Assembly (NCBI GenBank): GCA_963722305.1
Contig: CAVRKE010000002.1
Coordinates: forward strand, 586,678-650,677
DNA: 64,000 nucleotides
Source of the DNA: Candidatus Levyibacteriota bacterium
GTDB lineage: Bacteria; Patescibacteriota; Microgenomatia; Levybacterales; UBA12049
Direction: 5' to 3'
Shown: in pieces, positions 30-62,320 of the stretch
Numbering within the stretch: the stretch's first letter is position 1
Layout: each line of letters starts with the position of its first letter
The notes under the pieces: generated by a model
What the model was told of the DNA's origin: nothing
The model's input: only the letters and a program-made list of their open reading frames with translations
Databases searched by the model: none
Translations under genes and position numbers: made by a program

Positions 30-175
30 CTTGTGGTTACTCCGAGTGTTAGCTAAGTAAAGTAAATATAGGTAAGCCCAGTGAAAGTCTGGGGCTGTGC
101 CGCAACTGTTAAAGTCAGAAAACTATATTTACAACCTTTCACCCGAGCAGGTAATTTGTCCTTCTCGGGAAAAGA
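30..175 (+). ncRNA. cobalamin riboswitch candidate
   Basis: Positions 70-112 read AGGTAAGCCCAGTGAAAGTCTGGGGCTGTGCCGCAACTGTTAA, matching the conserved riboswitch core (GGUGAAA..CUGG.GCUG..CCGCAACUGUAA). A B12-box-like AGTCAGAAAAC follows at 113-124. It lies directly upstream of B12-related genes. Confidence 0.6.
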
Positions 176-189
176 GAAGGATTTTTTTA

Positions 190-902
190 TGGAAAAAACA
201 AGTGAAAATTTAACGGGAAAATTTTTCGATAATAAAGGAATAATCATTATTTTCATAGTAGTGTTTTCCTTGCTTATCCCGTCTGTTTTTGCTTTTCAAA
301 ATTCACCAATCAATAAACAGACGGCGGTGTTGGGGTTGGCGGCAAAAGCTAATTCGTCATTTCCAACCCCGACTCCGCTTCAACCGGCGGTTTCTGTCCC
401 GACACCAACCGGTGTTCCCACTCCCACCCTGATTGTCACTCAGGCTCCGACTCCGACACCAACTATCACACCAACCCCGACATTAACTCCAACGCCAACC
501 GCGGCTACTCCGACTCCAACGCCGACAGTAACCCCTTCGCCGACACCAACCAGTGTGCCGACCCCCACACAAACCGACACTCCCACCCCAACTCCTACCA
601 CCCTTAAAATTCAAATCGGTATAGATTACGCCGGACAAAGGCCAACTGATTCTGATACGACTTCAGTTAATCAAGGACAAACCGCTTGGGATGCGGTGGT
701 AGCGGCAGTAGGCATCAGCAACATTCAATATACGGATTACGGTGGAAGCATGGGGATTTTTATTACCGGTTTTAATGGCGTTAACGCGGCCTCAAATCAG
801 TATTACGAATTTGAAGTCAATGGTGTATCATCAAACGTAGGAGTTTCCAGCTATAAAGTCAATGACGGCGACAAACTGAATTTTGTTTTAACCAGTGATT
901 AA
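190..902 (+). CDS. membrane-anchored PT-repeat protein with C-terminal DUF4430-like (transcobalamin-like) domain; candidate extracellular B12-binding protein
   Basis: ORF 81..902 with a likely true start at the ATG at 190 (MEKTSENL...) followed by a hydrophobic helix. It has a long Pro-Thr linker. The C-terminal ~100 aa (TAWDAVVAAVG...NGVSSNVGVSSYKVNDGDKLNFVL) resembles the DUF4430 fold. It shares an operon context with riboswitch, ECF S component and PduO. Confidence 0.45.
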
Positions 903-1425
903 CATGCATAAATTTAAAAATCTTAGCGGTCCGTTTTTAGTCATTTTTAGCGCGGCTTTAATCAGGCTTTTGCCGCATCCGCCAAACTTTACGCCGATTG
1001 CGGCCATGGCCCTTTTTGGCGGTGCTTACTTAAACAAAAAATTTGCTTTTAGCGTCCCGTTGGGAGCGATGTTTATTTCCGACATTTTTTTGGGTTTTCA
1101 TTCAACCATGCCTTATGTATACGGCAGCTTTATTTTGGCAGGTTTAATTGGTTTATGGCTTAAAAAGCATAAAAGTGCGAAAAATGTCCTTTGCTCAACG
1201 CTTCTATCATCAATCTTATTTTTCTTAATCACCAATTTTGGGGTGTGGGCGCAAGGGTGGTATCCAAGAAACTTAAGCGGTCTCTGGGAAAGCTATGTCA
1301 TGGGAATTCCCTTTTTCAAAAATACTGTTGCCGGCGACCTTTTCTACAGCGGAATTTTCTTCGGGACCTATGAATTGGTTCAGCTTCTTGTAAGCAAATA
1401 CAGCGTCAATAAAGCACATTCTTAA
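895..1425 (+). CDS. ECF transporter S-component-like membrane protein (CbrT-like, candidate cobalamin-specific)
   Basis: 176 aa with 5-6 predicted TM helices. Start overlaps upstream stop (operon). Context is B12 riboswitch plus PduO. Confidence 0.45.
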   Translation: MINMHKFKNLSGPFLVIFSAALIRLLPHPPNFTPIAAMALFGGAYLNKKFAFSVPLGAMFISDIFLGFHSTMPYVYGSFILAGLIGLWLKKHKSAKNVLCSTLLSSILFFLITNFGVWAQGWYPRNLSGLWESYVMGIPFFKNTVAGDLFYSGIFFGTYELVQLLVSKYSVNKAHS

Positions 1426-2484: not shown

Positions 2485-4851
2485 ATGGGACCGAGACTGG
2501 AGATGGCGAACATTTTAGCTTTGTTGGTGCCCCTAACTGTAGTGGTGGTTGTATTATTACTTGTCGCCGGAGTTGTTGCCGGAGTAGGCTACCTTGTGCT
2601 GCTTTGGCTGCGAAACAGCGGCAGGGAAGGGCAATCCCTTGAGTCAACTCTTATTCAGGTAACCGTGCCCAGAGATAACGAGGTCAAAATTGACGCGGCG
2701 GAACAATTTTTTGCCAGTTTTGTCGGAATTAAAGCCAGCGGAATGTTCTCCTTCCTCAGATATAGGCCTCATATTGCTTTTGAAATAGTCGGTATGCCGG
2801 AAGACATCCGTTTTTATGTTTATGCCCCAAACAAATATAAAGATTTGGTGGAAAAGCAGATTAATGCATCATACCCGGACGCGGAAATAAAAGAAGTGGA
2901 CGAAAAAACTTCCAAAGAAGGCTATATTGTCGGCAACGAATACAACATTTTTTCCAAAGAGGGCAGAGTCGCTTTTGCCTCTTTTAAACTGGCCGATTCA
3001 AATTACAAACCAATTAAAGTTTTTAAAGATTTGGCGGTTGATCCGATGTCTTCTCTAACTTCGGTTTTGGCAAAGATGGGCCAGGGGGAGGGAGCGGCCA
3101 TTCAACTGATAATCTCCGGAGCGGATTCCGGCTGGAGCAAGAAAGGCCGAAAGTACATTGCTTCGACCAAAAAGGCCGAATCAAATCCGGAAACTGCCAA
3201 ATACTCGGCAGACCCGAAAGAATTGGAAGGAGTAGAAAATAAAATTTCCAAGCCGGGGTTTTACGCGGTGATAAGAGTCGTTGTCTCGTCAAGTTCACAA
3301 GAAGCGGCGGAGGCGCATTTGGCAAACATTGTCAGTGTTTTTGACCAGTTTAACGGTATCAATAAATTCAAGAAGAACAAGAATTGGATTAAAGGCAATT
3401 TTATCTCCGATTTCATTTACCGCTATTTGCCGGATCGGAATATGGCCATTTTGACCAGCGAAGAACTGGCCGGAATTTTCCACTTTCCTAATAAAAGCGT
3501 GGTGACGCCCCATATTCATTGGCTAAATGCCAAGCGGGCGCCGGCGCCGGCGCAAATCCCCAGCTCCGGCCTGTTCTTGGGTACCAGTACTTTTCGGGGC
3601 ATTGCTAAACCGGTTTACATTCAAAAAGACGATAGGAGGAGGCACATGTATGTGATTGGAAAAACCGGTGTCGGAAAATCGGAATTTTTGAAAGAGATGA
3701 TTTTGCAGGATATTAAAAATGGTGAAGGGGTTTGCTTTATCGACCCGCATGATACCATCGACAAACTGTTGCCACTAATTCCGCCGGAGCGGGCCGAAGA
3801 CGTTATCTTATTTGATCCCTCCGACACCCAACGGCCGATGGGTTTAAACATGCTGGAAGCGCAAACCGAAGAGGAGAAGCATTATATTGTCTCCTCAATT
3901 GTCGGGCTAATGTATAAACTGTATGATCCGAACAAAACCGGAATTATCGGACCAAGATTTGAGCATGCGATTAGAAACGCAATGCTCACAGTTATGTCGG
4001 AGAAGGGCAGTACCTTCATCGAAGTGGTTCGCGCCTTAACCGATGCCAATTTTGTCCAGGAATTGTTGCCGAAAGTGACCGACCCGATTGTCAGGCGCTA
4101 CTGGACCGACCAGATTGCCCAGACCAACGATTTCCATAAGTCCGAAGTGCTTGATTACATTGTTTCTAAATTCGGCCGTTTTGTCACCGATAAAATGATG
4201 CGTAATATAATCGGGCAGTCGGCCTCCGCTTTTGATTTTCGTAAAGTGATGGACGATGGTAAAATTCTGTTGGTTTCTTTGTCCAAAGGAAAAATCGGCG
4301 AGGAAAATGCCAGTTTCTTGGGGCTTATTTTGGTGCCGAAAATTTTGGTGGCAGCGATGAGTAGGCAAGATATTCCGGAAGAAAGCAGGCGTGATTTTTA
4401 TCTTTACGTTGACGAGTTTCAGAATTTTGCCACTCCCGATTTTGCTCAGATATTGTCGGAAGCAAGAAAATACAGACTCAACTTAGTTGTTGCCAACCAG
4501 TTTATCGGACAAATGGACGAAGACGTGAAAAACGCTATTTTTGGCAACGTTGGAACTTTAGTATCATTCAGGGTGGGAGTAACCGATGCAAATTATTTAG
4601 CTCATGAATTCCAGCCGGTATTCACCGAGGCAGATTTAATCAATGTTGATGTCTATAATGCCTACGTTAAAACCATTGTCCACAACGAGCCGATGAATCC
4701 TTTCTCGATGGATTTAACCCGCGATATGGCCAAAGCGGCAAGTATGGAAAACCCGCGCGTGGCGGAGCTAATTAGGGAACTCTCCAGACTAAAATACGGT
4801 AAAGAAATCAAAAGCCTCGAGGCCTCAATTGCACAGAGAGCCAGACTGTAG
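2485..4851 (+). CDS. membrane-anchored P-loop NTPase of the type IV coupling protein (VirD4/TraG/TraD, DUF87-like) superfamily
   Basis: 788 aa with an N-terminal TM helix. Walker A is VIGKTGVGKS. Walker B-like is LYVDEFQNF, followed by ARKYRLNLVVANQ, typical of the TraG/TraD C-terminal region. Confidence 0.55.
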   Translation: MGPRLEMANILALLVPLTVVVVVLLLVAGVVAGVGYLVLLWLRNSGREGQSLESTLIQVTVPRDNEVKIDAAEQFFASFVGIKASGMFSFLRYRPHIAFEIVGMPEDIRFYVYAPNKYKDLVEKQINASYPDAEIKEVDEKTSKEGYIVGNEYNIFSKEGRVAFASFKLADSNYKPIKVFKDLAVDPMSSLTSVLAKMGQGEGAAIQLIISGADSGWSKKGRKYIASTKKAESNPETAKYSADPKELEGVENKISKPGFYAVIRVVVSSSSQEAAEAHLANIVSVFDQFNGINKFKKNKNWIKGNFISDFIYRYLPDRNMAILTSEELAGIFHFPNKSVVTPHIHWLNAKRAPAPAQIPSSGLFLGTSTFRGIAKPVYIQKDDRRRHMYVIGKTGVGKSEFLKEMILQDIKNGEGVCFIDPHDTIDKLLPLIPPERAEDVILFDPSDTQRPMGLNMLEAQTEEEKHYIVSSIVGLMYKLYDPNKTGIIGPRFEHAIRNAMLTVMSEKGSTFIEVVRALTDANFVQELLPKVTDPIVRRYWTDQIAQTNDFHKSEVLDYIVSKFGRFVTDKMMRNIIGQSASAFDFRKVMDDGKILLVSLSKGKIGEENASFLGLILVPKILVAAMSRQDIPEESRRDFYLYVDEFQNFATPDFAQILSEARKYRLNLVVANQFIGQMDEDVKNAIFGNVGTLVSFRVGVTDANYLAHEFQPVFTEADLINVDVYNAYVKTIVHNEPMNPFSMDLTRDMAKAASMENPRVAELIRELSRLKYGKEIKSLEASIAQRARL

Positions 4852-4922: not shown

Positions 4923-5615
4923 ATGGCAAGAGTTATTGACAGGCAAAAAGCAATTGATTTAAGAAAGCAAGGTAAAACTTACGGTCAAATAAGGCAAGAA
5001 TTAGGAATTTCAAAAAGTACACTTTCAGATTGGTTAAGTAAATATCCTCTTAGCGAAAGACAGCTAACATTACTAGGAAATAATAAAAAGAACAGTAGGC
5101 AAGTTGCTATAGAAAAGACGATAATTGCCAAGCAAAAGAAACATCAATCCCGCATTGAATCTGCATATAAAGAACAGAAAAAATATTGGGTTTTTCTGTC
5201 TCAAAAAGAGCTCGAAATTGCCGGACTTTTTCTTTATTGGGGAGAGGGAAATAAAAGGTTAAATGGCTCGGTATTTATAAATAATACTGACCCAAGCGTT
5301 TTGAAATTTGCTTTGTATTGGTATATAAAAGGTTTGAGTGTTCCAAAAGAAAAAATAAAAGTAGACTTACATCTTTATAGCGATATGAATATACAAGAAG
5401 AGATTTCTTTTTGGAGTAGAACATTAAAATTGCCGGTGTCGCAATTCAGAAAACCTTATATTAAAGCCAGTACTAGGGTAGGGATAGATCAAAAAGGTTT
5501 TGGTCATGGAACTTGCGGTTTAAATGTTAATGATGTTTTGTTAAAAGAAAAAATCATAATGGGAATAAAGGCAATTTCAGATTATTATGCGTTAAAACTT
5601 GAGGCTATGATATAA
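4923..5615 (+). CDS. HTH domain + LAGLIDADG-like domain protein (paralog of 8713..9402)
   Basis: N-terminal resolvase-like HTH (GKTYGQIRQELGISKSTLSDW). The central motif AGLFLYWGEGNK resembles a degenerate LAGLIDADG motif. It has a strong promoter TTGACA-17-TACTAT at 4867-4895. Confidence 0.45.
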   Translation: MARVIDRQKAIDLRKQGKTYGQIRQELGISKSTLSDWLSKYPLSERQLTLLGNNKKNSRQVAIEKTIIAKQKKHQSRIESAYKEQKKYWVFLSQKELEIAGLFLYWGEGNKRLNGSVFINNTDPSVLKFALYWYIKGLSVPKEKIKVDLHLYSDMNIQEEISFWSRTLKLPVSQFRKPYIKASTRVGIDQKGFGHGTCGLNVNDVLLKEKIIMGIKAISDYYALKLEAMI

Positions 5616-5627: not shown

Positions 5628-5699
5628 GCGCCCGTAGTTCACCGGCAGAACAATTGTCTTATAAACAATAGGTATTTGGTTCGACTCCAAGCGGGCGCA
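5628..5699 (+). tRNA. tRNA-Ile (anticodon UAU)
   Basis: Hand-folded cloverleaf: acceptor GCGCCCG/CGGGCGC; D-arm GTTC-ACCGGCA-GAAC; anticodon arm ATTGT-CTTATAA-ACAAT; T-arm TTTGG-TTCGACT-CCAAG; discriminator A. An extended -10 TGaTATAAT lies upstream. CCA is not encoded. Confidence 0.75.
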
Positions 5700-5774
5700 C
5701 AGGGTTATTAAAAAGTTCAAGCAGACGCACTAATCATTGACAGGTATAAAATTTAAGGTTATCATTTAAACAAT

Positions 5775-6429: not shown

Positions 6430-7290
6430 TTACAGTTCGGTTAAAACGGAGGTTTCTTTGCCGCGTTCCGGCACGTATTGCAGGTATCTTTCGGTGGTCG
6501 AAATTCGTTTGTGTCCCAACACTTTGGACAAAACCATCAACGATACGCCGTGTTTTAAGTGGTGGGAGACAAAAGTATGCCTTAAATCGTTGACTTTAGC
6601 ATCTTTTATTTCCGCTAATCTGAAATATCTTTCCACCGCGGTTCTAATGTTTCTGATTAAAAACGGTTTGCCGGATTTGGTAACGAAAATATGAGTTTCG
6701 GTAACTTTGGGCCTTACTTCCAAATACCTATTTAATGCTTCCTCGGCTCTTTTATTCAAGGGAACAATTCTTTCTTCGTGTTTTTCAAACGGAGCAATGT
6801 GTAAACCGGCTTTAGTCATGTCCGAAAGTCTTAAATTTGCCAACTCGCCGATTCTAATGCCGGTTTGCAGCAGTAATTCGATCACCGCAAACATGCGCGG
6901 ATCGTTTCTGGCGGCATCGCGTAAGGCTCTGTATTCGGTTGGCGTGAGCATTCTTGGTGCGGCCAGCTGGTATTTGGGGTGGGAGATTAAAAGCGAAGGG
7001 TCGTCGGTAACGTATTCGTTCACTTTCAAAAATCGGTAGAAAGTCCTGGTGGAGTTAATTTTTCTGGAAACTGACTTTGGAGTGTAGCCCTCTTTGGTTA
7101 ATTTGGCTAAAAAAGCTTCAATATCGTCCTTACTTACTTCATGAACATTATTTCTTTCCAGTTCTTCCAAAAACGTCAAAAGCTGGTCAATATCCTTGCC
7201 GTAGGCAACAACAGTCGAATTTGATTTTTTATTCTGTTTTAAAAAATTCTTAAACTCTTCGTGGGCATCGCGAAGTCCAATTTGCTTCAT
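6430..7290 (-). CDS. tyrosine site-specific recombinase (XerC/XerD/phage-integrase family)
   Basis: 286 aa with the C-terminal catalytic region ...LRHTFVSHHLKHGVSLMVLSKVLGHKRISTTERYLQY and an N-terminal SAM-like domain. Confidence 0.8.
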   Translation of the reverse strand: MKQIGLRDAHEEFKNFLKQNKKSNSTVVAYGKDIDQLLTFLEELERNNVHEVSKDDIEAFLAKLTKEGYTPKSVSRKINSTRTFYRFLKVNEYVTDDPSLLISHPKYQLAAPRMLTPTEYRALRDAARNDPRMFAVIELLLQTGIRIGELANLRLSDMTKAGLHIAPFEKHEERIVPLNKRAEEALNRYLEVRPKVTETHIFVTKSGKPFLIRNIRTAVERYFRLAEIKDAKVNDLRHTFVSHHLKHGVSLMVLSKVLGHKRISTTERYLQYVPERGKETSVLTEL

Positions 7291-8712: not shown

Positions 8713-9402
8713 ATGCAACATAACCAGGTTGTTAAAAATAGAGTACGTCAGCTTCGCATGCAGGGCTTAAGTTTAGGGCAAATATATCAAGAAACAAGCA
8801 TTCCAAAAACGACTATTCGAAGCTGGATTATGGATATTAAGCTTTCCGAAAGACAATTAGATATATTAAAATCCAGAACTCAGAAAGCGTTACAAAAGGG
8901 AAGAATTAAAAAGCAAAAGCAAGATAAGGTTTCAAGACTTGATAACGAGAAGAAACTTTTACAAAAGGCGCTTTTGAAAATAGGGAATTTGAGCGATCGA
9001 GATTTACTCATGGCAGGAGTTGCTTTGTATTGGGGAGAGGGGTTTAAAAATAAACATGAGCATCGATTGGGTTTTTGTAATTCGGATCCGGAAATGATTA
9101 TGTTTTACATAAAATGGCTTGAAAAATGCTTTAGAATTAAAAAGGACGATGTAATTGCCAGATTAACTTTAAACGTAGCTTATAAAGAAAAAACAGAAGC
9201 TATAGAAAATTATTGGTTAAAAATTACAGGAATACCAAAAAATCAATTTAAAAATACTTTTTATCAGAAAACAAAATGGAAAAAACAATATAACGAGGAT
9301 AATTATCATGGCGTTTTAAGAATTCACGTAAAAGATAGTTTAAACATGTTGATTTCGACAAGAGGTTTTATTGAGGGAATGAAGTTGAGTGTGATAAAAT
9401 AG
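8713..9402 (+). CDS. HTH domain + LAGLIDADG-like domain protein (paralog of 4923..5615)
   Basis: N-terminal HTH (GLSLGQIYQETSIPKTTIRSW). The LLMAGVALYWGEGFKNK motif is comparable to LAGFVEGEGSF of the intron-encoded endonucleases in this window. Confidence 0.45.
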   Translation: MQHNQVVKNRVRQLRMQGLSLGQIYQETSIPKTTIRSWIMDIKLSERQLDILKSRTQKALQKGRIKKQKQDKVSRLDNEKKLLQKALLKIGNLSDRDLLMAGVALYWGEGFKNKHEHRLGFCNSDPEMIMFYIKWLEKCFRIKKDDVIARLTLNVAYKEKTEAIENYWLKITGIPKNQFKNTFYQKTKWKKQYNEDNYHGVLRIHVKDSLNMLISTRGFIEGMKLSVIK

Positions 9403-9408
9403 GTAAGC

Positions 9409-9482
9409 GCCAGGGTAGCTCAGTCGGTTAGAGCACAGCATTCATAACGCTGAGGTCGTGGGTTCGATCCCCACTCCTGGTA
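9409..9482 (+). tRNA. tRNA-Met (anticodon CAU, elongator-type)
   Basis: TAGCTCAGTCGGTTAGAGC D-arm; anticodon loop TTCATAA; T-arm GTGGG-TTCGATC-CCCAC; acceptor GCCAGGG/TCCTGGT. Close to the E. coli metT pattern, with no initiator features. Confidence 0.8.
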
Positions 9483-9549
9483 CTTTTGTCCGTGAACCTA
9501 TATTCCACAAAAATTCGTAAATTCTCGCAAAATCTCCTATAATACCCAC

Positions 9550-10785
9550 ATGCATGATATAAAAAAGTTCATTTTTTCCGGCTATGATATCAATCTTGGT
9601 CAAGGAATAGTCACCTTTCATTACTTGACTCAATCAGATAAACAGAGCCATGAATTCACGGAAAAGATCACGTTTCCTCCTGTGGTTTCTCAAACTCCGG
9701 ATAATTTACTGAAGTCCTTATTGAATAATCTCCTGTTAATTTTAGGGATTAGTTATTGGAAACTATATTGTCCTCAAGACATCATAATTGAACCATTTTC
9801 TTTAACTCAATATCAAGCAGAATTTTGGAATACAATATACACAAAGGGATTGGGCGAGTTTTTTTATAAAAATAAAATCGATTTTCGAAACCTAGTTAAT
9901 TTTCCTTATGAAGAACATGATGTAAAATCGGTACCGTTTGTAAGACAAAATAGGTCTCTTTTGGCTCTTGGTGGAGGAAAAGATTCGATTGTGTCGGCAG
10001 AGATACTGAAGACTCGAAAGACAAATTTTGACCTTCTTACCGTTGGAACCTCAATAATCCAGGATGAAGTAGCAAAAATTATCGGAAGAAAGGTTATTGT
10101 TATAAATCGTCAGATTGACCCCGCACTTTTTCAGTTAAATAAAAGCGGTAATGCCTATAACGGTCACATTCCAATTTCCGCAATCTATGCGTTTTTAGGC
10201 TTGATGGCAGCCATTTTTTATGACTACAGCTATGTGGTAGTCTCGAACGAAAAAAGCGCCAATTACGGCAACGTCGAATATTTAGGCGAGATGATCAATC
10301 ATCAATGGAGCAAGTCGGAGGAGTTTGAAAGCCTTTTTAAAAATTATGTTAACAATTTTATAACCCCTGATGTTTCCTATTACTCATTATTAAGAAAGTA
10401 CGATGAACTTGAAATCGCTGAATTATTCGTTAAACATAAGCAATACTTTAGCGTATTTTCTTCCTGTAATAATAATTTTAAAATTAACGAAAAAATTGAT
10501 TTAAATTCAAAATGGTGCGGCAAGTGTCCGAAATGCCTGTTTGTTTTTACTCTTCTTGCGGGACTTATGCCCAAAAAGGAGTTAATAAGCGTATTTGGCA
10601 GAAATCTTTTCGAAGACGAATCTCTGCTGCCAATTTTTAAAGAATTACTTGGTATTAAAGATTTCAAGCCTTTTGAATGCGTCGGTACTCCCTCTGAGGT
10701 CAAAACGGCTTTGGCCAAAGCTTACGATAGGGGAGAATTTTCCGGCAGTGTTTTAATGAGAGTCTATAAAAATGAAACTAGCTGA
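9550..10785 (+). CDS. PP-loop ATP pyrophosphatase superfamily protein; candidate MurL-like UDP-MurNAc-L-Ala-L-Glu epimerase
   Basis: SGGxDS-type PP-loop motif LALGGGKDS at about residue 140. C-terminal CGKCPKC cysteine cluster. The 3' end overlaps the murD start by 14 nt (translational coupling). Confidence 0.4.
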   Translation: MHDIKKFIFSGYDINLGQGIVTFHYLTQSDKQSHEFTEKITFPPVVSQTPDNLLKSLLNNLLLILGISYWKLYCPQDIIIEPFSLTQYQAEFWNTIYTKGLGEFFYKNKIDFRNLVNFPYEEHDVKSVPFVRQNRSLLALGGGKDSIVSAEILKTRKTNFDLLTVGTSIIQDEVAKIIGRKVIVINRQIDPALFQLNKSGNAYNGHIPISAIYAFLGLMAAIFYDYSYVVVSNEKSANYGNVEYLGEMINHQWSKSEEFESLFKNYVNNFITPDVSYYSLLRKYDELEIAELFVKHKQYFSVFSSCNNNFKINEKIDLNSKWCGKCPKCLFVFTLLAGLMPKKELISVFGRNLFEDESLLPIFKELLGIKDFKPFECVGTPSEVKTALAKAYDRGEFSGSVLMRVYKNETS

Positions 10786-12067
10786 TTTAAAAAACAAAAA
10801 AATTCTGATTGTCGGAAAAGGAGTTGAGGGGGAAGCCGTTGGGAGATATCTGAAGAAGAAATTTCCAAATATTACTATTGATGCCGTTGATAAAAAAGAC
10901 GGTCAAGATTACCTTGAAAAGCAAAGCAATTACGATATTGTTATTAAGTCACCGAGTGTAAAACCCGAAGTAATCAGTATTCCTTATACAACCGCAACAA
11001 ACCTTTTTTTAGCTAATGCCAAAGGGAAAATTATCGGAGTCACGGGAACTAAAGGCAAAAGCACAACTGCAACGTTAATCTACGAAATGCTTCAGAAACA
11101 GGGCTTCGATGCATATTTAGGTGGCAATATAGGTGTTTCCCCTTTAGATTTTTTGGATAAATTAGATACTCAATCATGGACAGTACTTGAATTATCTAGT
11201 TTTCAGTTGCAAGACTTAAAAATAAGCCCACACATTGCTGTTTTATTAATGATTGTTCCGGAGCACTTAGATTATCATCAGTCATTAGAAAAATACATTG
11301 ACGCAAAGAGGAATATTTTAAGGTTTCAAACAGCAGTGGACTTTGCGGTGATTAATAAAGATTATCCTGCAAGTAATGAGTCTGACGTAGAAACGCCGGC
11401 ACGCGTTTTTAGAGTCAGCAGAGAAAAAGAAGATGACAACGGTTGTTTTGTAAGAAGTAAGTCCGTTTGGATAAAAAAAGACGAAGAAGAATTAGAGATT
11501 ATTAAACTTAGTGAAATAAAACTTCTTGGAGAACACAATTTAGAAAATGTTTGTGCAGCGGCAATGGCGGCTTATCTTGCCGGGGTTTCTGTAGTAAACG
11601 TCGCTGCAGTTTTAATAACGTTTAGCGGCTTGGAGCATCGGTTAGAATTTGTTAGAAAAGTCGGAGATGTCAGTTTTTTTAATGATTCCTTGGCTACTCT
11701 CCCTCAAGCTACAGTGGAAGCGCTGAAAACTTTAAAGGAGACGGAAACTTTAATAACGGGAGGATTTGACAGGGGTTTGGATTATAAAGATTTAGCTAAA
11801 GCAATTGTTCAGTCCGGCATTAAGATACTTATTCTGTTTCCAACTACAGGAGCAAGAATTTGGAAGGAAATTTGTGAAGAAACAGATAATCCTCCTGAGA
11901 AATTTGACGTAACTACAATGGAACAGGCAGTCAGAATTGCTTTTGTGGAGACTACTCCGGGTAAAATTTGTTTAATGTCGCCTGCGTCAGCCAGTTTTAA
12001 TCTTTTTAAAAACTATAAAGACCGCGGAGATCAGTTTAAGGAAGAAGTTCTTAAATTAAAATCCTAA
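10772..12067 (+). CDS. murD: UDP-N-acetylmuramoyl-L-alanine--glutamate ligase (MurD family; possibly L-Glu-adding MurD2)
   Basis: Mur ligase motifs: N-terminal KILIVGKGVEG Rossmann, ATP-binding GVTGTKGKSTTATL, and the central/C-terminal Mur ligase domains. Confidence 0.8.
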   Translation: MKLADLKNKKILIVGKGVEGEAVGRYLKKKFPNITIDAVDKKDGQDYLEKQSNYDIVIKSPSVKPEVISIPYTTATNLFLANAKGKIIGVTGTKGKSTTATLIYEMLQKQGFDAYLGGNIGVSPLDFLDKLDTQSWTVLELSSFQLQDLKISPHIAVLLMIVPEHLDYHQSLEKYIDAKRNILRFQTAVDFAVINKDYPASNESDVETPARVFRVSREKEDDNGCFVRSKSVWIKKDEEELEIIKLSEIKLLGEHNLENVCAAAMAAYLAGVSVVNVAAVLITFSGLEHRLEFVRKVGDVSFFNDSLATLPQATVEALKTLKETETLITGGFDRGLDYKDLAKAIVQSGIKILILFPTTGARIWKEICEETDNPPEKFDVTTMEQAVRIAFVETTPGKICLMSPASASFNLFKNYKDRGDQFKEEVLKLKS

Positions 12068-12081
12068 TTTCTAATTTTTAA

Positions 12082-13311
<1,230 letters not shown>

Positions 13312-13376
13312 ATAATCCGCTGCTATAAGATAGATACATGGTAGAAACAGCTGTTGCAGGATACCGTTGCAAAAAC

Positions 13377-14520
13377 GGTCACCTGAATAGCCTCAAGAGT
13401 TCTCCAATTTCCTCAGGGTTTTTCATGGTCTGTTGAAGTGAAGATGTTCCATTTAACATTCTGAATTTAGCGGTACAATCGGTAAAGACTTTCAGTCTTC
13501 GTCTTAAGAAATATGCATTTAACCACATATCAGCGTGTTTAAATGATTCAAAACCTTTCAGCGGCTTTACTCTGGCTTCTAAGTGCGAGTTGTAACTTTC
13601 AATCAGATTAGTAGTGGTGGGAATAGTTCTGTTATTCATGTAGGTGTTTAATTGCGGTAATCTCCTTTGCATGTCTAAAAGGATCGCAGAAAGTAATGAA
13701 TCATGTTTGTAGGTATTATACAGTTTTGCGGCTAATGTGAGGAATTCATCTTCCGCTCTTTTGTGAGAGAACAAGTCTTCTATTCTCTGCATAAAAGGAA
13801 GATATGTTGTATCAGTTCTGACTCCAAGAGTTGTCCTGATATTCTCCTTGTAGTGATTATGGCAAAGTTGAGTAAGCACTTTAGGATATACTGACACACA
13901 GGCATCATAGATATTGGCATTGTCATCAGAAACAATGGCCTGTAAAGGATAATTCAATAATCGTAAGGAGTTGAAAAACGTCCGGCAAGTTTGGTAGCTT
14001 TCAGATTGGGAGAAAATATATGTTGGGATATCATGAGTAAGGTAATCAATCCCATACAAAACCGGAATCTTTCTTTCGTATCCCTTCACTTTAATATATT
14101 TTCCATCAACCACTAATATCCCACAGAACTTACTGCAGTATTTTCTTGTTACGTCTGCTAAATGAGGGAGCTCTCCTAATTCCTTAAGGCAGCGTCTGTA
14201 GGCAGTAGATGGGTCAATTTGGTAGGTTTTTCCTAAGGAGCGGAAAGATACTCCGGTCAGATGAGCAAACAGCAATTTTCCAGTGGAGTTTTTCTTTATC
14301 CTATTTATCTGAAACCATTTATTACACTTTCTACAAACATATTTAATTTTTCCTCTTCTTACTCCTTTACGGATAGTATTTTGGCTTTCGCAGTGGGGAC
14401 ATCTGTAAGATGCTGTTTTTTTTCACTCAAGGAGTATATCATCAACAAAGACAATTCTCACTGAGTGGAATTACTGCTTTTGTTTGTTAGAACAATCTAA
14501 ATACCCTCTTTCAGGTGACC
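13377..14520. mobile_element. IS element (ZF-DDE transposase family), copy 1
   Basis: 11-bp terminal inverted repeats GGTCACCTGAA at 13377-13387 and 14510-14520 (inverted) bracket the transposase gene. Confidence 0.55.
13379..14442 (-). CDS. zinc-finger DDE transposase, interrupted by a frame change at an A8 tract
   Basis: Main ORF 13379..14275 (VDGKYIKV...DDN...). An in-frame upstream extension encodes a C2C2 zinc finger (CPHCESQ...CRKCNKW) up to a stop just 5' of the A8 run (plus T-run 14416-14423). The ATG at 14442 is in the -1 frame. Confidence 0.6.
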
Positions 14521-29564: not shown

Positions 29565-31328
29565 ATGAAATTTGAAGATTTGTCAAAGTATTTTGAAAAG
29601 CTTGAGGCAACTTCATCTCGTCTTGCGTTGATAGAAATATTGTCGGAGCTGTTTAAAGATAAAAATATTCAAGATTCTGATGAAATCGAGAAAATTATTT
29701 ACTTATTGCAAGGCAGAATTGCACCTTTCTTTGAACCTATTGAGATGGGTATGGCAGAAAAAACAGTTGCTGAGTCAATAGCTCAAGCCTCATACGGTTT
29801 ATACAATAGAGATGCAGTTTTACGAAAATATAGCGAGCTAGGGGATTTAGGTAAGGTAGCACAAGAAATCGCAGGACAAAATCTTCAAAAAAGAAAACTT
29901 AAGCCTGGAAATTTAACTGTTACTCAAGTATTCGGTCGTTTAAAAGAAATTGCTCAGACTTCAGGCAATGGAACTGTTGAAACAAGAATCGAAATTGTTT
30001 CTCAAGCATTATTAATGAGAAGTGTTGATCCGTCTTCTGAAAAGTATATAGTCCGCATTTTGCTTGGAAATCTGAGGTTGGGTATCGGTGACCCGACAGT
30101 TCTTGACGCTTTGGCCACGGCAAAGTTAGGTGATAAGTCGCAAAGAAAACTGTTGGAAGGTGCATACAACCGCACTTCAGATTTGGGTTTGATTGCCAAA
30201 ACCTTGTGGGATAGTGGATTAGGAGCTGTTCAGAAGTTAGAGCTGAGGGTTGGTTACCCTGTCCGTTCGGAATTATGCGAGCGTTTGCCAAATCCCGAGA
30301 AAGTGATCGAAAAAATGGGGGAAGTAGATGTCCAGTATAAATATGACGGGTTTAGGGTGCAAATTCACAAAAACGACGACGAAGTGCGCATGTTCTCGCG
30401 CAATTTGGAAGAAATGACCCACATGTTCCCGGAACTTATCGTTGCTGTCAAAAAACAAATCAAAGCCAAAACCATCATTCTTGATTCGGAAGCCTTAGCA
30501 TACAATCCGGAATCGGAAGAATTTTTGCCGTTCCAAGAAACTACTAAACGAAGACGCAAACATGGAATCGAAGAAATGGCCAAAAGTCTGCCGCTGAAAG
30601 CCTTTGTTTTCGATATTCTCTATAAAGATGGAGAGTCGCTTATCGACAAACCATTACAGGAAAGAATGGCAGTTCTCAAAGCGGTTTTGCCGGAAGATGA
30701 TGTACTCATCAGAACAAAAAATCAGACCATCGCTGACGCGAAAGTCTTAAGTGTTTTACTGGAGGACGCCATTTCTAAAGGTTTGGAAGGATTGGTTGTC
30801 AAGAAACTGGAAAGCCCGTATGAAGCAGGGGCGCGCAATTTCAATTGGGTCAAACTCAAGCGGCATTCCTCAGGTGAATTAAATGACACTATTGATTGTG
30901 TAATCTTGGGTTATATTAGCGGGAAGGGTAAGCGCACGGTTTTTGGAGCCGGCGCCTTACTGGTTGGAGTTTATGACCAAGAAAAGGACGAATTTGTCTC
31001 AGTCTCAAAGATCGGAACGGGACTGACGGACGAGGAGTGGAGAGAAGTGCACAAAAGAGCGGATAAAATCAGTCTTCAGCAAAAACCGGCCAGAGTCAGC
31101 TCAAATATTATTCCGTCGGTTTGGATAAAGCCGGAGATTGTTATCGAAATTCTGGCGGATGAAATTACCCGTTCACCAATCCATACTGCCGGTAAAACCG
31201 AGACAGAAGCGGGTTATGCCCTCAGATTTCCGCGTTTGGTTTCTTTCAGGGGTTCGGACAAAAAAGCCGAAGACGCAACCAGCGTGAAGGAATTAATTGA
31301 AATGTACTCTCAGCAAGGAAAACAGTAA
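29565..31328 (+). CDS. ATP-dependent DNA ligase (archaeal/eukaryal-type with N-terminal DNA-binding domain)
   Basis: Motif I KYDGFRVQIH (KxDGxR). Downstream adenylation and OB motifs (EGLVVK, FAFDILY). Confidence 0.85.
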   Translation: MKFEDLSKYFEKLEATSSRLALIEILSELFKDKNIQDSDEIEKIIYLLQGRIAPFFEPIEMGMAEKTVAESIAQASYGLYNRDAVLRKYSELGDLGKVAQEIAGQNLQKRKLKPGNLTVTQVFGRLKEIAQTSGNGTVETRIEIVSQALLMRSVDPSSEKYIVRILLGNLRLGIGDPTVLDALATAKLGDKSQRKLLEGAYNRTSDLGLIAKTLWDSGLGAVQKLELRVGYPVRSELCERLPNPEKVIEKMGEVDVQYKYDGFRVQIHKNDDEVRMFSRNLEEMTHMFPELIVAVKKQIKAKTIILDSEALAYNPESEEFLPFQETTKRRRKHGIEEMAKSLPLKAFVFDILYKDGESLIDKPLQERMAVLKAVLPEDDVLIRTKNQTIADAKVLSVLLEDAISKGLEGLVVKKLESPYEAGARNFNWVKLKRHSSGELNDTIDCVILGYISGKGKRTVFGAGALLVGVYDQEKDEFVSVSKIGTGLTDEEWREVHKRADKISLQQKPARVSSNIIPSVWIKPEIVIEILADEITRSPIHTAGKTETEAGYALRFPRLVSFRGSDKKAEDATSVKELIEMYSQQGKQ

Positions 31329-42469: not shown

Positions 42470-43321
42470 GGGTTCTCCTACCCTGTTGGTAAAGCATGTA
42501 GCGTGTTTTGCAAGTAATGGTAAGGAGATTTAAACATTTCCGGTCTGGAAAATCTGCAGTAAAATTCACAGACATATTCTTCAAGCTTTTCTTCACTGAC
42601 ATGGTGGTACATCCTCCGGATAAAAGTCCTTAAAACGCCAAACATTCCTTCAATTTCAGAGGTGTTGGTAAACTCAAATTTCTTGTGAATGTCTGTCATA
42701 TGGAATAGAGGATAATACTTATCAATATTTTTGTAAATAGTAGAGCCATCTGTATTTAGTTGAGACTCTGGTTTAACGTAAGTTCTAACAAAATCAATTG
42801 CATCTTTCTTCGCTGGGGCATCAGAGGAGAGGATTTGATAAGCAAGCTTTCTGGTTCCTCTCTCCTTTCCCATGAGAAGTGCGGTATTACCAAATCTGCC
42901 AAAGTAGGCCTCATCAAGCTGGACAATATGCTCTAGAAGCCTCTGATCTCTTGGTAATTGTTCTCTGAACAAGTCAAAGTAATGTCTGACTCCCTTCTCA
43001 GACAAAGAAGTTAGATCTTCAGTCTGTTTAACCGGCATTTGTTTTGTCCAGCACCAGAGAATTAACCAAAATCTCTGCAAAGGAATCTTCACATTGCAAA
43101 GCCAGGTATGGGAAAACAGCGAGAACTTAATCTGACATTGTCTACATCTGTATCTTTTTTCAAAGCGAACAATATTCCAGGATTTGCACTTTGGACAGAA
43201 GATATTTCTACCAAAAACAGTTCTTCTGAGAAACTTTTTAATCTGGGCATCCGTAGGTACTTGTTTTAAATGGTACATAATCATATTCTAACGATTTTGT
43301 ACCAACAGGGTGGGATTACCC
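42470..43321. mobile_element. IS1595-family insertion sequence with 8-bp target site duplication
   Basis: 22-bp imperfect inverted repeats GGGTTCTCCTACCCTGTTGGTA at 42470- and at 43321- (inverted). They are flanked by perfect direct repeats TAAAATTC (42462-42469 and 43322-43329). Confidence 0.8.
42478..43284 (-). CDS. IS1595-family transposase
   Basis: N-terminal zinc finger (CPKCKS...CRQCQ) and a DDE core (LDEAYF, TDGSTIYKNI). Confidence 0.8.
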   Translation of the reverse strand: MIMYHLKQVPTDAQIKKFLRRTVFGRNIFCPKCKSWNIVRFEKRYRCRQCQIKFSLFSHTWLCNVKIPLQRFWLILWCWTKQMPVKQTEDLTSLSEKGVRHYFDLFREQLPRDQRLLEHIVQLDEAYFGRFGNTALLMGKERGTRKLAYQILSSDAPAKKDAIDFVRTYVKPESQLNTDGSTIYKNIDKYYPLFHMTDIHKKFEFTNTSEIEGMFGVLRTFIRRMYHHVSEEKLEEYVCEFYCRFSRPEMFKSPYHYLQNTLHALPTG

Positions 43322-55153: not shown

Positions 55154-56242
55154 GTGAAACCTATGAAATCAAAAGCACATAAGCCGGCATTGTATCATCC
55201 ATGGGGATACACAACCTGGAGAGCAATTGAAAAGGGAAAAGATAACTACTGGGATTATCTTCGTATTCAGGCAAAGTTGAATAAACTATCTCCAAAAGGA
55301 CAACTTCATTTGGAATGGGTAATCTTTTACTACACGTTTGGAGAAAGAAACGTTAGTAAAACCACTAAGCACTTTGGTATTGCAAGAAAGACTCTAAGAG
55401 TCTGGTTAAAACGGTTTGACGGTAAGTTTATCAAAAGTCTTGAAGAGAAACCGAAAAGACCAAAACAAGTTAGGACATGGATGGTATCTCAAAAAGAAGA
55501 GGAGCAAATTATTGCGCTTCGAAAAGAAAACATGGAGCTTGGTAAAAGAAAATTAAAGATTCTCTACGCTAGAAAATACCAGGAGAATATCTCAACTTGG
55601 AAGATTGAACGGGTAGTAAGAAAGCACAAATTATTCCAAGAGAAAAAGAACGGATACGTTAAAAGAAGACCTAAACAGCCTCGAATTCGTATCCATAAGG
55701 TAAAAGAACTATTACAGGAATATCCTACGGGAGTAGTCTGGCATACGGACAGTATTATTATCTGGTGGTATGGCACAAGAAAAGTTATCTTCACAGCCTT
55801 AGAGAACAAAACTAAGCTTGGCTTTGCCAGAGTATACAAAACAAACTCTTCGGCAAATGCTGCAGACTTTCTGAAACGACTAAGCTATTTAAGCAATAAT
55901 CAGCTTGCCATTATTCACTCTGACAATGGATCTGAGTTTGATAAGGATTTTGCAAGAGTATGTGAAATACTTTCCATCCGACAAGTATTCTCCCGCCCCC
56001 ATACGCCCAAGGATAATCCTTGTCTTGAGAAGTTTAATCATACAGTACAAAGAGAGTGGCTTAGTTTTTCTGTCATAGGGCTTGATGAAATTGATGAAGC
56101 AAATATTGATTTAACAGAATGGTTAGTCAAATACAACAGTATTCGTCCGCATCAAGCCCTTGACTACAAAACTCCTTTGGACTATGCTTATGAGCAATCT
56201 CCTCAACTGGTACCAATGACCCCAGCCCAATCATGTAATTGA
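55154..56242 (+). CDS. IS481/IS3-like transposase (HTH + rve integrase core)
   Basis: DDE integrase core (HTDS, SDNGSEF, PHTPKDNPCLEKFNHT). RBS AAAGGAGGTG upstream. Confidence 0.8.
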   Translation: MKPMKSKAHKPALYHPWGYTTWRAIEKGKDNYWDYLRIQAKLNKLSPKGQLHLEWVIFYYTFGERNVSKTTKHFGIARKTLRVWLKRFDGKFIKSLEEKPKRPKQVRTWMVSQKEEEQIIALRKENMELGKRKLKILYARKYQENISTWKIERVVRKHKLFQEKKNGYVKRRPKQPRIRIHKVKELLQEYPTGVVWHTDSIIIWWYGTRKVIFTALENKTKLGFARVYKTNSSANAADFLKRLSYLSNNQLAIIHSDNGSEFDKDFARVCEILSIRQVFSRPHTPKDNPCLEKFNHTVQREWLSFSVIGLDEIDEANIDLTEWLVKYNSIRPHQALDYKTPLDYAYEQSPQLVPMTPAQSCN

Positions 56243-58608: not shown

Positions 58609-58914
58609 GTGAGGAGAAGGCCCATTGAATTTTTCCGATTTATTTCGGAAGAGTTTAATGGGAAGATTTTTAATCTACTCATAATGCCGATAATGGATGC
58701 CTAGGAGGCTTTGACCGAGGAAGGACGCATACGGCGGCGATACTCGTTGGGGAGGTGCCATAAACCTTTGATCCAGCGGTTTCCGAATGGGGTAACCCAC
58801 CAGCTTGTCTGGTGGCCAAAAATGAACTTGGACTCGTAAGAGTTCATATAACTTTTGGCCGGGTACGGCGTGAACTGAAACATCTAAGTAACGCCAGGAA
58901 TATAAATCATCCGA

Positions 58915-58946
<32 letters not shown>

Positions 58947-60743
58947 CAGTCTAAACTTGTGCGCAGCACAAGAAATCACAAATCACAATGACCAAATCTC
59001 AATTAATTTTGGGATTTGGATTTTGGAGCTTGGGGTTTCTCGCGTTGCGCGCGAGGGTTGCAGGGCAGACGATATTCGATTAAATTCAGGTAGCAGAAGG
59101 ATCCGGAATGGTCCTCCACAGAGAGTGAAAGACTCGTACGCGAAACTTGAATTTACGATAGTCTGTTCCTAAGTACCATGGGGTACGGTGAAACCCTGTG
59201 GGAATCTGGGGCGGCCACGTTCCAAGACTAAATATCAAAGTCTACCGATAGTGAACTAGTACCGCGAGGGAAAGGTGAAAAGCACCCCGGGAGGGGAATG
59301 AAATAGAACTGAAATTGTCGGCTAACAAGCAGGCAGAGTCGAGCGCAAGCGAGATGATGCCGTGCCTATTGAAGAATGAACCGGTGAGTTATTGATTGCA
59401 GTATAGCTTAACCAAGCTTGTCTTGGGGAGGCGTAGTGAAAGCGTGCCCTAACCGGGCGATTAATTGCAGTCATTAGACCCGAAACTGGGTGAGCTAACC
59501 TTGAGCAGGGTGAATGTTGACGAAAGTTAGCAGGAGGCCCGAACTCGTAGCAGCAGCAATTGCTTGAGATGACTTGAGGTTAGGGGCAATATGCCAAACG
59601 AACCCAGAGATAGCTGGTTCTCCCCGAAATATATTTTGGTATAGCGGTTATTTGTAATACGCTGAGGTAGAGCACTGGATGATCATTTGCGTCGCAAGAC
59701 GTAGGGATTAACCAAACTCCGAATGCAGCCGTATGTTTAATAACTAGTCAGACTCGTCGGGCTAAGCCGATGGGTCAAAAGGGAAACAGCCCAGACTCCC
59801 ATCTAAGGCCTCTAAATAAAGGCTAAGTTTTGAACGAAGTCAAATTTCATAGACAACCAGGAAGTTGGCTTAGAAGCAGCCATCTTTTAAAGAAAGCGTA
59901 ACAGCTCACTGGAGGATGATATTTGGCGCGAAAAATTTATCGAGGATTAAGCCTTTTGCCGAAGTTGGAGTTCCTATTTTATTAATTTAAGGTAGGGAGG
60001 TAGGGGAGCGTTCTATTTGCAGTGAAGCCGAGGTGTAAACCGAGGTGGAGCGGATAGAAGTGAGAATGCCGGTATGAGTAGCGAAATGCATGTGAGAATC
60101 GTGCACGCCGAATATCCAAGGTTTCCTCCGCAATGTAAGTCAGCGGAGGGTTAGTCGGTCCTAAGGGTGTGCCTCGTTAAAGGGGCGTAGCCCGATGGAT
60201 AAGTCGTTGAAATTCGACTACAGAATGTGAACCGTTCAAGGGAAGGACGAAAGTGGAAGAGCTGAGTCCCGTTCGCGGGATTTAAGCAGTAAGATAGTGA
60301 TAACTGGTAAATCCGTTATCGTGTTTAATCAAGCTGCAAATAAAAGGGATTAGTAATAATTCCGATTTAGTAGCTTTCAGTTTCCGAGAAAATTTTCATT
60401 GAGTCCCAAGAGCAATCGAAGGACAAATTCATATTTTTCCGTACCGCAAACCGACACAGGTGGATTGGTCGAGAAGACTAAGGCGATCGAGTGACAGATG
60501 TTCAAGGAACTCGGCAAAAAAGCTAGGCGTAACCTATGGGAGATGCCTTGTCCTGATTAGTTTCAGGATTGCAACAAAAGTTTATTTACCGACTGTTTAT
60601 CTAAAACACAGGTCCCTGCAAAGCCGAAAGGCAAAGTATAGGGGCTGACGCCTGCCCAGTGCTGGTAAGTCAAATATCGTGAATAAAACGTCGCAAGATG
60701 TCAGTTTGTGATATAAGCTCCAGTAAACGGCAGCAGTAACTAT

Positions 60744-61452
60744 AAGAAATTGTAGTTATAAAATTTAGCTATATGCTGGAAAATCTGTACCGCAACTGTT
60801 TAAAACAGACGGTTGAAGTATCTGGCGTTACTATGTTATATTTAATGTAGTGAAAAAACGTCCAGCGCAGACAATCAGCAGGAAAGACCTTGATCGGAAG
60901 AATTTAGGCTATTTTATAGCGGGGTTTGTAGAAGGAGAAGGGAGTTTTAATGTATCACTTCGTAAAAAAAGTGATTATAAGGTTAAATGGCAAATTGTTT
61001 TAAGTTTTAATGTTTCCCAAAAAGATCCATCAGTTCTTTTTATAATAAAAAAAGAACTAGGATGTGGAATAATTAAAACAAGAAAAGATGGTTTGCATTC
61101 TCTAGATATTACAAACTCTCAAGAAATAGTCAAAAAAGTTATTCCATATTTCACAAGATATCCTTTACTATCTAATAGTAAAATTAATAACTTTAATATA
61201 TTCTGTAAAATCTCAAAGCTTGTTGAAAGCGGAGAGCATAGAGATATTAAGGGATTAAAAAGAATTTTACTTTTAAGAGAAAAATTAAATGAAGGTAAAG
61301 GAAGAACAAGGAAATATGGATATAATGATATATTTCCGATTGAGGAATCCTCAGAGACTATACGCTAAACCCGCTTATAAGCGGTGATGATATAGTCCGA
61401 CCTCATGGACGACCATGAGACTCTGTATTCAATCAGAGCAAGTAACAATGTG
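60744..61452 (+). mobile_element. group I intron 1 in 23S (E. coli position ~1917 region) with LAGLIDADG ORF
   Basis: The 5' exon ends ...GTAACTAT. The R element TCAGAGACTATACG overlaps the ORF end. The S element GATGATATAGTCCGACC is present. The intron ends ...CAATGTG before the 14-nt exon AACTGTTCTATGGT. Confidence 0.65.
60850..61368 (+). CDS. LAGLIDADG homing endonuclease (intron-encoded)
   Basis: Single-motif LAGLIDADG: LGYFIAGFVEGEGSF. Confidence 0.8.
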   Translation: MKKRPAQTISRKDLDRKNLGYFIAGFVEGEGSFNVSLRKKSDYKVKWQIVLSFNVSQKDPSVLFIIKKELGCGIIKTRKDGLHSLDITNSQEIVKKVIPYFTRYPLLSNSKINNFNIFCKISKLVESGEHRDIKGLKRILLLREKLNEGKGRTRKYGYNDIFPIEESSETIR

Positions 61453-61466
61453 AACTGTTCTATGGT

Positions 61467-61712
61467 AACACTTCGTTGCTTTAGAAAAAGTGTTTTAGAA
61501 ATCTAACTATATGCTGGAATAACTCAGAATCCAACAGTACCAGAAATGGTAAAAATCTGTTTGGTGGAGTCAATCAGCAGGGAAGATCCCGATCTCTCGG
61601 GAAACCCTCAGAGACTAAACGTTAGAGTCGCCATTCAGGCGATAAGATATAGTCCGACCTCCGATGCGAATCGGAGAATCTAGATTTGCAAGATCTAGGA
61701 TTAACATAATTG
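61467..61712 (+). other. group I intron 2 in 23S (E. coli ~1931 region), ORF-less
   Basis: R element GGGAAACCCTCAGAGACTAAACG and S element ATAAGATATAGTCCGACC. Ends ...AACATAATTG immediately before exon AGCGAAGTTCC. Confidence 0.6.
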
Positions 61713-62183: not shown

Positions 62184-62216
<33 letters not shown>

Positions 62217-62247
62217 GATCGCATCCAAGCGTCCACAGCGACGATGC

Positions 62248-62305
<58 letters not shown>

Positions 62306-62320
62306 CCGGCTGTTCGCCGG

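Follow-up and report, generated by a model that had tools for sequence, protein, structure and literature searches.

The closest described system to the gene pair considered here is the MurD2/MurL pathway, which was first described in Xanthomonas oryzae in 2017 (PMC8788868, PMC5808125). In this bacterium MurD2 joins L-glutamate (L-Glu) to the cell-wall precursor, and XOO_1319 (MurL) turns this terminal residue into D-glutamate (D-Glu); the second reaction requires ATP and Mg2+, yields AMP and proceeds from L to D only (PMC8788868, PMC5808125). The biochemistry of MurL is known only for the enzymes of X. oryzae, Micromonospora and Salinispora (PMC8788868), and reviews state that the protein "lacks known conserved domains" and that its mechanism is unclear (PMC8788868, PMC5808125). 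Here we analyze two overlapping genes, murL and a murD-type gene, of a Candidatus Levyibacteriota bacterium, a member of the Candidate Phyla Radiation (CPR, Patescibacteria). They lie in a stretch of 64,000 nucleotides (contig CAVRKE010000002.1, positions 586,678 to 650,677, forward strand), and this whole stretch is called the window below.

Other bacteria reach the same end, D-Glu for the stem peptide, by means of glutamate racemase (MurI), D-amino-acid aminotransferase or, in Chlamydia, a bifunctional DapF (PMC5885031). MurI and MurL are not homologous and they work differently: MurI acts on free glutamate, is independent of cofactors and is reversible, whereas MurL acts on a nucleotide-linked dipeptide, consumes ATP and is unidirectional.

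An earlier note on this DNA had proposed that the two genes form a MurL/MurD2 route in which L-Glu is the residue added to the precursor. The homology of the upstream gene product to MurL and the specificity residues of the ligase both support that proposal. We therefore think that the overlapping pair most probably encodes a racemase-independent route of D-Glu to peptidoglycan, as in X. oryzae, and we would put the probability at about 85%.

Homology of the upstream gene product to MurL

The product of the upstream gene matches NF041275, the NCBIfam model of MurL (UDP-N-acetyl-alpha-D-muramoyl-L-alanyl-L-glutamate epimerase), over its full length, with an E value of 7.7e-111 and 370.7 bits; residues 4-409 align with positions 7-411 of the 447 in the model. 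Moreover, the precomputed Pfam annotation of an identical protein contains both MurL families, PF26299 (MurL_N) and PF26298 (MurL_epimerase_C). Identity to the proteins of Frateuria, Dokdonella and Rhodanobacter (Xanthomonadales/Lysobacterales) is 36-41%. Those of Frateuria and Dokdonella are true MurL equivalogs, as they reach 778 and 766 bits on NF041275, above its equivalog cut-off of 700 bits. The nearest named relatives are from Candidatus Levybacteria, with 57-63% identity. Many close homologues are named MurL epimerase by JGI and hypothetical protein by NCBI. The homology to MurL that the earlier note had asked about is thus present, and membership in the family is already implicit in the Pfam and JGI annotations.

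The likeness to X. oryzae MurL includes both Pfam domains, homology over the full length and a MurD-type ligase encoded immediately downstream. The differences are the host, which is a small-genome CPR bacterium, the function, which is predicted for the window protein, and the size. The Xanthomonas protein has about 450 amino acids against 411 for that of the window, which has about 40 residues less at the C-terminus.

Reading the DNA directly, we find the 411-amino-acid open reading frame (ORF) upstream of murD with its internal PP-loop, and a 14-nucleotide overlap, ATGAAACTAGCTGA, that joins the start codon of murD to the stop codon of murL, both as had been described. Two details of the motifs had to be corrected. 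The loop is indeed of the SGGxDS type, with the sequence GGGKDS, in which Gly replaces the first Ser of the classical PP-loop. A cysteine cluster exists as well, but it reads CGKCPKC (C323, C326, C329), with the spacing CxxCxxC instead of CxxC-x-C, and it sits about three quarters along the protein and not at the extreme C-terminus. LALGGGKDS is the only match to [SG]GGxDS in the six-frame translation of the whole window.

Specificity residues of the ligase

The downstream gene product scores 351 bits against TIGR01087 (murD), above the cut-off of 212 bits, and contains the Pfam domains Mur_ligase_M and Mur_ligase_C. Published mutations tell which residues of such ligases govern the choice between the two enantiomers of glutamate: the double mutation E197D/R358K turns X. 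oryzae MurD2 fully from L-Glu to D-Glu, P433A and F435L leave its stereospecificity unaffected, and K319T makes E. coli MurD accept L-Glu (PMC8788868). The equivalent positions were mapped by a HMMER alignment to E. coli MurD and by a MAFFT alignment of 73 sequences, which agree with each other, and the E. coli numbering was checked at K115, N138, E157, H183, K198, R302 and D317. We consider the mapping sound because the Xanthomonadales MurDs, in the MAFFT alignment and in an independent HMMER alignment, reproduce the published E197, R358, P433 and F435.

At positions 182, 319, 348, 414 and 416 of the E. coli numbering, the E. coli enzyme has D/K/K/A/L, that of S. agalactiae T/K/R/A/W and Xanthomonadales MurD2 E/I/R/P/F. 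Like X. oryzae MurD2, the window ligase belongs to the MurD family, has Glu, Arg and Phe where that enzyme has E197, R358 and F435, and carries a hydrophobic residue in place of Lys319. It differs from the Xanthomonadales enzymes in having Ala for Pro433 and Leu for Ile at 319, with an overall identity of about 30-34%. The same pattern recurs among 70 MurDs that are linked to MurL genes, of which 62 have Glu at position 182. At position 319 every one of the 70 has Ile, Leu or Phe and none has Lys, position 348 is Arg in every case, and position 416 is always aromatic or His. Position 414 is Pro in 66 of these sequences and Ala in three, that of the window included.

The question raised in the earlier note, whether this ligase carries the canonical D-Glu residues, can be answered in the negative for the two positions that switch stereospecificity, where Glu164 and Arg334 agree with the L-Glu-adding enzyme; Lys319 is missing as well. 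With both determinant residues of this kind, the alignments support the assignment of the enzyme as a putative MurD2-type ligase.

Predicted fold and probable chemistry of MurL

The predicted structure of MurL, calculated by AlphaFold2 from an alignment of 69 sequences, has a mean predicted local distance difference test score of 92.3 and a predicted template modeling (TM) score of 0.92. The MurL_N domain takes up about residues 1-130 and is followed by the QueC-like PP-loop core, at about 131-340, and then by a helical C-terminal part that contains Cys377. In the model, GGGKDS comes after strand 133-139 of a Rossmann-like alpha/beta core. The top match of this model in a Foldseek search of the PDB was QueC (3bl5, E value 6.8e-6, target TM score 0.66; also 2pg3), and further matches were TtuA, the QueC-like proteins QatC and Cap9, MJ0690, MnmA, argininosuccinate synthase ArgG, ThiI and GMP synthase, all of which are PP-loop ATP pyrophosphatases.

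Sequence comparison leads in the same direction. A profile of 31 diverse homologues matched TtuA PH0300 (E value 3.6e-6) and MJ0690 (E value 1.6e-4) in the PDB, both on the loop segment, with the MurL loop paired with SGGKDS of the two proteins. By contrast, the single-sequence search of the PDB gave nothing significant (MJ0690 at an E value of 0.22 and a spurious match to NDUFS5), and neither the single-sequence nor the profile search of the PDB found a MurL structure. An hhalign comparison of the MurL profile with E. coli QueC gave an E value of 6e-5 over 181 columns and paired GGGKDS with SGGQDS, and SSCNxNF...WCGxCPKC with LTCYNGF...GCGHCAAC. In QueC structures, the aligned cysteines are the four zinc ligands. 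The PP-loop that the earlier note had read from its motif thus extends to profile matches on this segment and to a predicted fold resembling QueC, TtuA, MnmA and ArgG. The model places MurL among the PP-loop ATP pyrophosphatases, with QueC as the closest member.

MurL is not an orthologue of QueC, despite the common fold and cysteine site. QueC, QatC and Cap9 share with it the core fold, the PP-loop and the SC...CGxCxxC site. QueC, however, is a single-domain protein of about 220-230 amino acids, whereas MurL has an extra N-terminal domain of about 130 residues and a C-terminal helical domain with Cys377, an identity to QueC of about 12-20%, no conserved link to queuosine genes, and a Gly for the first Ser of SGGxDS, as in most members of its family.

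Conservation was evaluated over 78 sequences, 12 of them from Xanthomonadales. The loop residues G142, G143, D145 and S146 are conserved in at least 97% of the sequences; C306, C323 and C326 are invariant (78/78) and C329 is found in 77 of 78. Cys377 is also invariant (78/78), with P374, V378 and G379 around it conserved to at least 97%. When 69 close homologues and 31 diverse ones are aligned, C306 before the cluster and C377 after it likewise stand out as two more invariant cysteines. The strongly conserved set is G142, G143, D145, S146, H206, E234, H251, K255, C306, C323, C326, C329 and C377. At all positions conserved to at least 97%, the window protein has the same residue as the 12 Xanthomonadales sequences, which therefore share with it the PP-loop, the Cys4 site, Cys377 and the His, Glu and Lys positions. 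Cys377 is a candidate for a catalytic acid/base or for a thioester nucleophile, and the invariant H206, H251, E234 and K255 are candidate acid/base groups, judging from their conservation.

PP-loop enzymes adenylate an oxygen of the substrate and release pyrophosphate, and carboxylates are adenylated in this way by QueC, NAD synthetase and asparagine synthetase. A core of this type would explain the ATP-to-AMP stoichiometry of MurL. The carboxylate adenylation of QueC, with release of AMP, fits the published MurL data, and such chemistry would give a structural basis to the published hypothesis that MurL works by adenylation. The idea that adenylation enables epimerization, which the earlier note had also put forward, agrees with the fold of the PP-loop enzymes and with the release of AMP that has been published; for the window protein it would hold by analogy.

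Table 1. Features of the murL-murD pair, with positions in the window
Feature	Position	Strand	Evidence
murL ORF, 411 amino acids, ATG start	9550..10785	+	NF041275 over the full length, MurL_N and MurL_epimerase_C, AlphaFold2 model, Foldseek
murD-type (putative MurD2) ORF, 431 amino acids	10772..12067	+	TIGR01087, Mur_ligase_M, Mur_ligase_C, signature residues
14-nucleotide overlap, murD ATG (10772) and murL TGA (10783..10785)	10772..10785	+	direct reading of the sequence
MurL PP-loop LALGGGKDS, residues 138-146, predicted ATP pyrophosphate-binding loop	9961..9987	+	conservation, alignment to TtuA, MJ0690 and QueC
MurL Cys4 cluster C306...C323-x2-C326-x2-C329 (SSCNNNF...WCGKCPKC), predicted QueC-type structural Zn site	10465..10536	+	conservation, hhalign
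MurL invariant Cys377 in KPFECVGTP, MurL-specific, outside the QueC-like core	10678..10680	+	conservation in 78 sequences
Ligase Glu164 (E. coli D182, X. oryzae MurD2 E197)	11261..11263	+	HMMER and MAFFT
Ligase Leu307 (E. coli K319)	11690..11692	+	HMMER and MAFFT
Ligase Thr309 (E. coli T321)			HMMER and MAFFT
Ligase Arg334 (E. coli K348, MurD2 R358)	11771..11773	+	HMMER and MAFFT
Ligase Ala407 (E. coli A414, position of MurD2 P433), E. coli-type residue kept			
Ligase Phe409 (E. coli L416, MurD2 F435)	11996..11998	+	HMMER and MAFFT
Ligase Tyr415 (E. coli F422)			HMMER and MAFFT

Gene linkage, fusions and distribution

A scan of one genome per species gave at least 598 confirmed matching stretches, and the statistics on loci refer to the best 80 of them. 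Enough flanking sequence for linkage is present in 76 of these loci, and in 72 of the 76 a MurD frame lies directly 3' of murL in the same orientation and either overlaps it, abuts it or is fused to it. Single stop-free frames cover both MurL and MurD in 22 of the 72 linked loci. In four loci (L020, L024, L070 and L073) the linkage is looser, with MurD 0.5-3.3 kb downstream, and in a Paceibacterota locus (L052) the MurL homologue has no MurD within 6 kb.

Fusions are also found in a search of 1.84 billion cluster representatives, which gave 2,675 clusters (50% identity) at E values up to 1e-3 and 1,213 at up to 1e-30: about 22 of the best 150 representatives are MurL-MurD fusions of 800-900 amino acids. 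In these proteins the N-terminal half holds the GGGKDS loop and the C-terminal half the GxKGKST loop of Mur ligases, except for one with the reversed order. A fusion from Candidatus Kuenenbacteria occurs on 45 contigs, and the one with the reversed order recurs on several. Each of three fusion proteins that were examined matches both NF041275 and TIGR01087. In our opinion, such fusions indicate that the two activities belong to a shared pathway and argue for an obligatory two-step route.

About two thirds of the best 80 loci (54) carry CPR/Patescibacteria labels, among them Levyi-, Roizman-, Woese-, Morani-, Uhr-, Staskawicz-, Taylor-, Falkow-, Peri-/Peregrini-, Gracili- and Saccharibacteria and Paceibacterota, while Xanthomonadales/Lysobacterales (Dokdonella, Luteibacter, Rhodanobacter and Frateuria) account for 13. 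In a neighbour-joining tree the Xanthomonadales form one tight clade within a much deeper CPR diversity, and the window protein stands beside that of a Levyibacteriota genome. The tree is rough, midpoint-rooted and without outgroup or support values, and neither a rooting nor a direction of transfer is drawn from it. Literature searches on MurL with CPR or Patescibacteria, or on glutamate racemase in CPR, found no paper in the library searched. Reviews place MurL/MurD2 in some Gamma- and Alphaproteobacteria and in rare actinobacteria, with low-similarity relatives in cyanobacteria, a fungus and an amoeba (PMC8788868, PMC5808125).

Seven of the 80 loci (L002, L004, L036, L047, L051, L060 and L062) are labelled as uncultured Gammaproteobacteria, Weeksellaceae or Holdemanella biformis and contain CPR-like MurL-MurD pairs. 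Their identity to the window MurL is 41-53% and their G+C content 31-52%. Wrong binning or labelling of CPR contigs is the likely explanation, with horizontal transfer as the alternative.

Proposed pathway and alternative explanations

Taking these results together with the published biochemistry, the route would have two steps. The MurD2-type ligase would spend ATP to couple L-Glu, and not D-Glu, with UDP-MurNAc-L-Ala, and MurL would then epimerize the terminal L-Glu to D-Glu with ATP, giving the normal substrate of MurE. With its QueC-like core and a probable zinc Cys4 site, MurL would most likely activate the terminal glutamate by adenylating its alpha-carboxylate. This adenylation would acidify the alpha-proton, either for direct enolization of the acyl-adenylate, or through an oxazolone formed with the carbonyl of the preceding L-Ala, or through a Cys377 thioester. 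Reprotonation from the opposite face and subsequent hydrolysis would yield the D-epimer irreversibly. The overlap of the genes, and the fusions in relatives, may serve to keep MurL and MurD2 co-expressed. We infer for the window pair the activities of the characterized enzymes, and likewise where adenylation occurs, what Cys377 and the Cys4 site do, and that glutamate racemase would be dispensable.

No MurI catalytic motifs were found in the six-frame translation of the window, and its 42 ORFs include no match to Asp_Glu_race or Aminotran_4 and no second Mur ligase. Several considerations weigh against the proposed route. The exclusion of murI, of D-amino-acid aminotransferase and of a moonlighting DapF holds for the 64-kb window only, which makes up less than 10% of its contig of 679,204 bp. 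The score of the window MurL is below the equivalog cut-off of NF041275, so that the NCBI rule would not name it MurL; we read such a score as divergence and not as exclusion from the family, because the model was tuned to and built for Xanthomonadales only. The hhalign probability of the match to QueC is just 65%, for a single QueC sequence. As for the ligase, it has Ala at the 414 position, where 66 of the 70 linked MurDs have Pro, though the published P433A mutant kept its stereospecificity; this Ala407 is a minority state, common to the window ligase and its Levyibacteriota relative. Asp occurs at position 182 in 8 of the 70 linked MurDs, and Arg at 348 is also present in the D-Glu-specific streptococcal MurD (PMC8788868). 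For these two reasons, no single MurD position is diagnostic. The canonical contrast set is small, with two sequences, those of E. coli and S. agalactiae, plus statements in reviews. Finally, the activity of the window pair and of its CPR homologues is a prediction from sequence.

The window-limited search for murI bears on the first alternative to be considered, in which the homology of the pair to MurL/MurD2 holds but murI or another source of D-Glu is present in the organism too. MurL would then serve in repair or proofreading of mis-incorporated L-Glu instead of providing the main route, and the ligase would be dual-specific or D-Glu-specific. The Ala that the ligase shares with E. coli MurD at position 414 agrees with such a role, and Arg348 alone is compatible with the use of D-Glu, as in the streptococcal enzyme (PMC8788868). 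Both specificity-switch residues of MurD2 are nevertheless of the L-Glu type here and Lys319 is absent, the pair is fused in many relatives, which points to an obligatory two-step pathway, and the window has no MurI or Aminotran_4 signal, so that we consider a repair function unlikely.

A different use of the adenylation chemistry appears less probable still. The closest folds to MurL, QueC and its relatives, are enzymes that adenylate carboxylates and amidate them, and CPR proteins reach just 280-400 bits on the Xanthomonadales model; the CPR enzymes might thus catalyze another change, such as amidation of the alpha-carboxylate to isoglutamine with ammonia, replacing or accompanying epimerization. 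Against this very improbable scheme, the residues conserved to at least 97% are identical in CPR and in the Xanthomonadales clade, which contains characterized genera, no glutaminase or ammonia-donor partner is linked to the pair, and an L-Glu-type partner ligase makes sense only with an epimerase to follow it. A QueC-like role of the PP-loop protein in queuosine or tRNA modification, with incidental adjacency to murD, might be suggested by QueC being the best structural match, by the position of tgt (12121..13311) just downstream of murD, and by one homologue called 7-cyano-7-deazaguanine synthase by JGI. We rejected this role, which has the slightest chance of the three, because tgt is near the pair in just 3 of 80 related loci, against 72 of 76 that have MurD next to MurL or fused to it. 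Besides, the full-length match of the protein is to MurL (NF041275), and its low identity to QueC is accompanied by the additional N- and C-terminal domains. A MurL/MurD2 route by way of L-Glu is hence the reading that we prefer.

Genomic context of the pair

A transfer RNA gene with a CAT anticodon (9409..9483) lies just upstream of murL. A scan of 9300..13500 for promoters and terminators found sites no more numerous than in shuffled sequence. Two paralogous helix-turn-helix proteins of about 230 amino acids (4923..5615 and 8713..9402; 33% identity, E value 3e-22), with a common "YWGEG" segment, each end just before a tRNA gene, that for Ile (TAT) at 5628..5700 and that for Met (CAT), respectively. 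The anticodon TAT is uncommon for bacterial tRNA-Ile.

The window has a G+C content of 41% and a 23S rRNA match in the region 58668..63324, of 3,737 nucleotides against a model of 2,925. A group I intron (61457..61676) and ORFs at 60850..61368 and 62517..63020 break up this rRNA gene, which is followed by a detached 3' fragment of the large-subunit rRNA (63176..63324) and by 5S rRNA (63607..63717). A tRNA-Ala(TGC) gene precedes it, and 16S rRNA is absent from the window. CPR bacteria commonly have an intron-rich 23S gene that is not linked to 16S.

An AdoCbl-II (cobalamin) riboswitch (54..131) stands directly upstream of DUF4430 and DUF6580 ORFs (54..1425 with the riboswitch), which possibly form a module for uptake or binding under the control of B12. 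At 29565..31328 this bacterial genome encodes an ATP-dependent DNA ligase that has the N-terminal, adenylation and C-terminal domains DNA_ligase_A_N, DNA_ligase_A_M and DNA_ligase_A_C; such three-domain enzymes are typical of archaea and eukaryotes. Genes of mobile elements are at 2485..4851, 6430..7290, 13379..14275, 42478..43284 and 55154..56242, a notable load for a small genome. They comprise a VirD4/TraG-like coupling protein, a tyrosine recombinase, a Mutator-family transposase (just after tgt), an IS1595 transposase and an rve integrase.

Conclusions and outlook

The window pair are clear relatives of MurL and MurD2, an identification that is correct but incremental. What is new here is the predominance of CPR among the closest relatives of the window MurL and the frequency of natural fusions, together with the loss of Lys319 in all MurL-linked ligases of the census and the QueC-like PP-loop and Cys4 architecture of MurL. 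The QueC-like core, with D145 and S146, the Cys4 site and Cys377, offers concrete targets for mutagenesis.

According to reviews, the pathway is confined to a fairly small number of genera (PMC8788868, PMC5808125), which makes MurD2/MurL a target for narrow-spectrum antibiotics. Our data point elsewhere, to a large MurL family whose closest relatives mostly carry CPR/Patescibacteria labels and in which natural fusions are common. As to annotation, outside Xanthomonadales the family is a hypothetical protein at NCBI and its partner is called a D-glutamate ligase.

It is tempting to extend the reading further, and to suppose that L-Glu ligation followed by epimerization, often in one fused polypeptide, is the usual D-Glu route of much of the CPR, with a Cys377-based inversion after adenylation by a QueC-derived MurL. 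This generalization is tentative, and we regard it as possible but with the odds somewhat against it. If it were true, the Xanthomonadales system would form a single shallow branch, and the family would have its main diversity in CPR. For the biology of CPR bacteria, a route of this kind would fill what is likely a "missing murI" gap in metabolic reconstructions.

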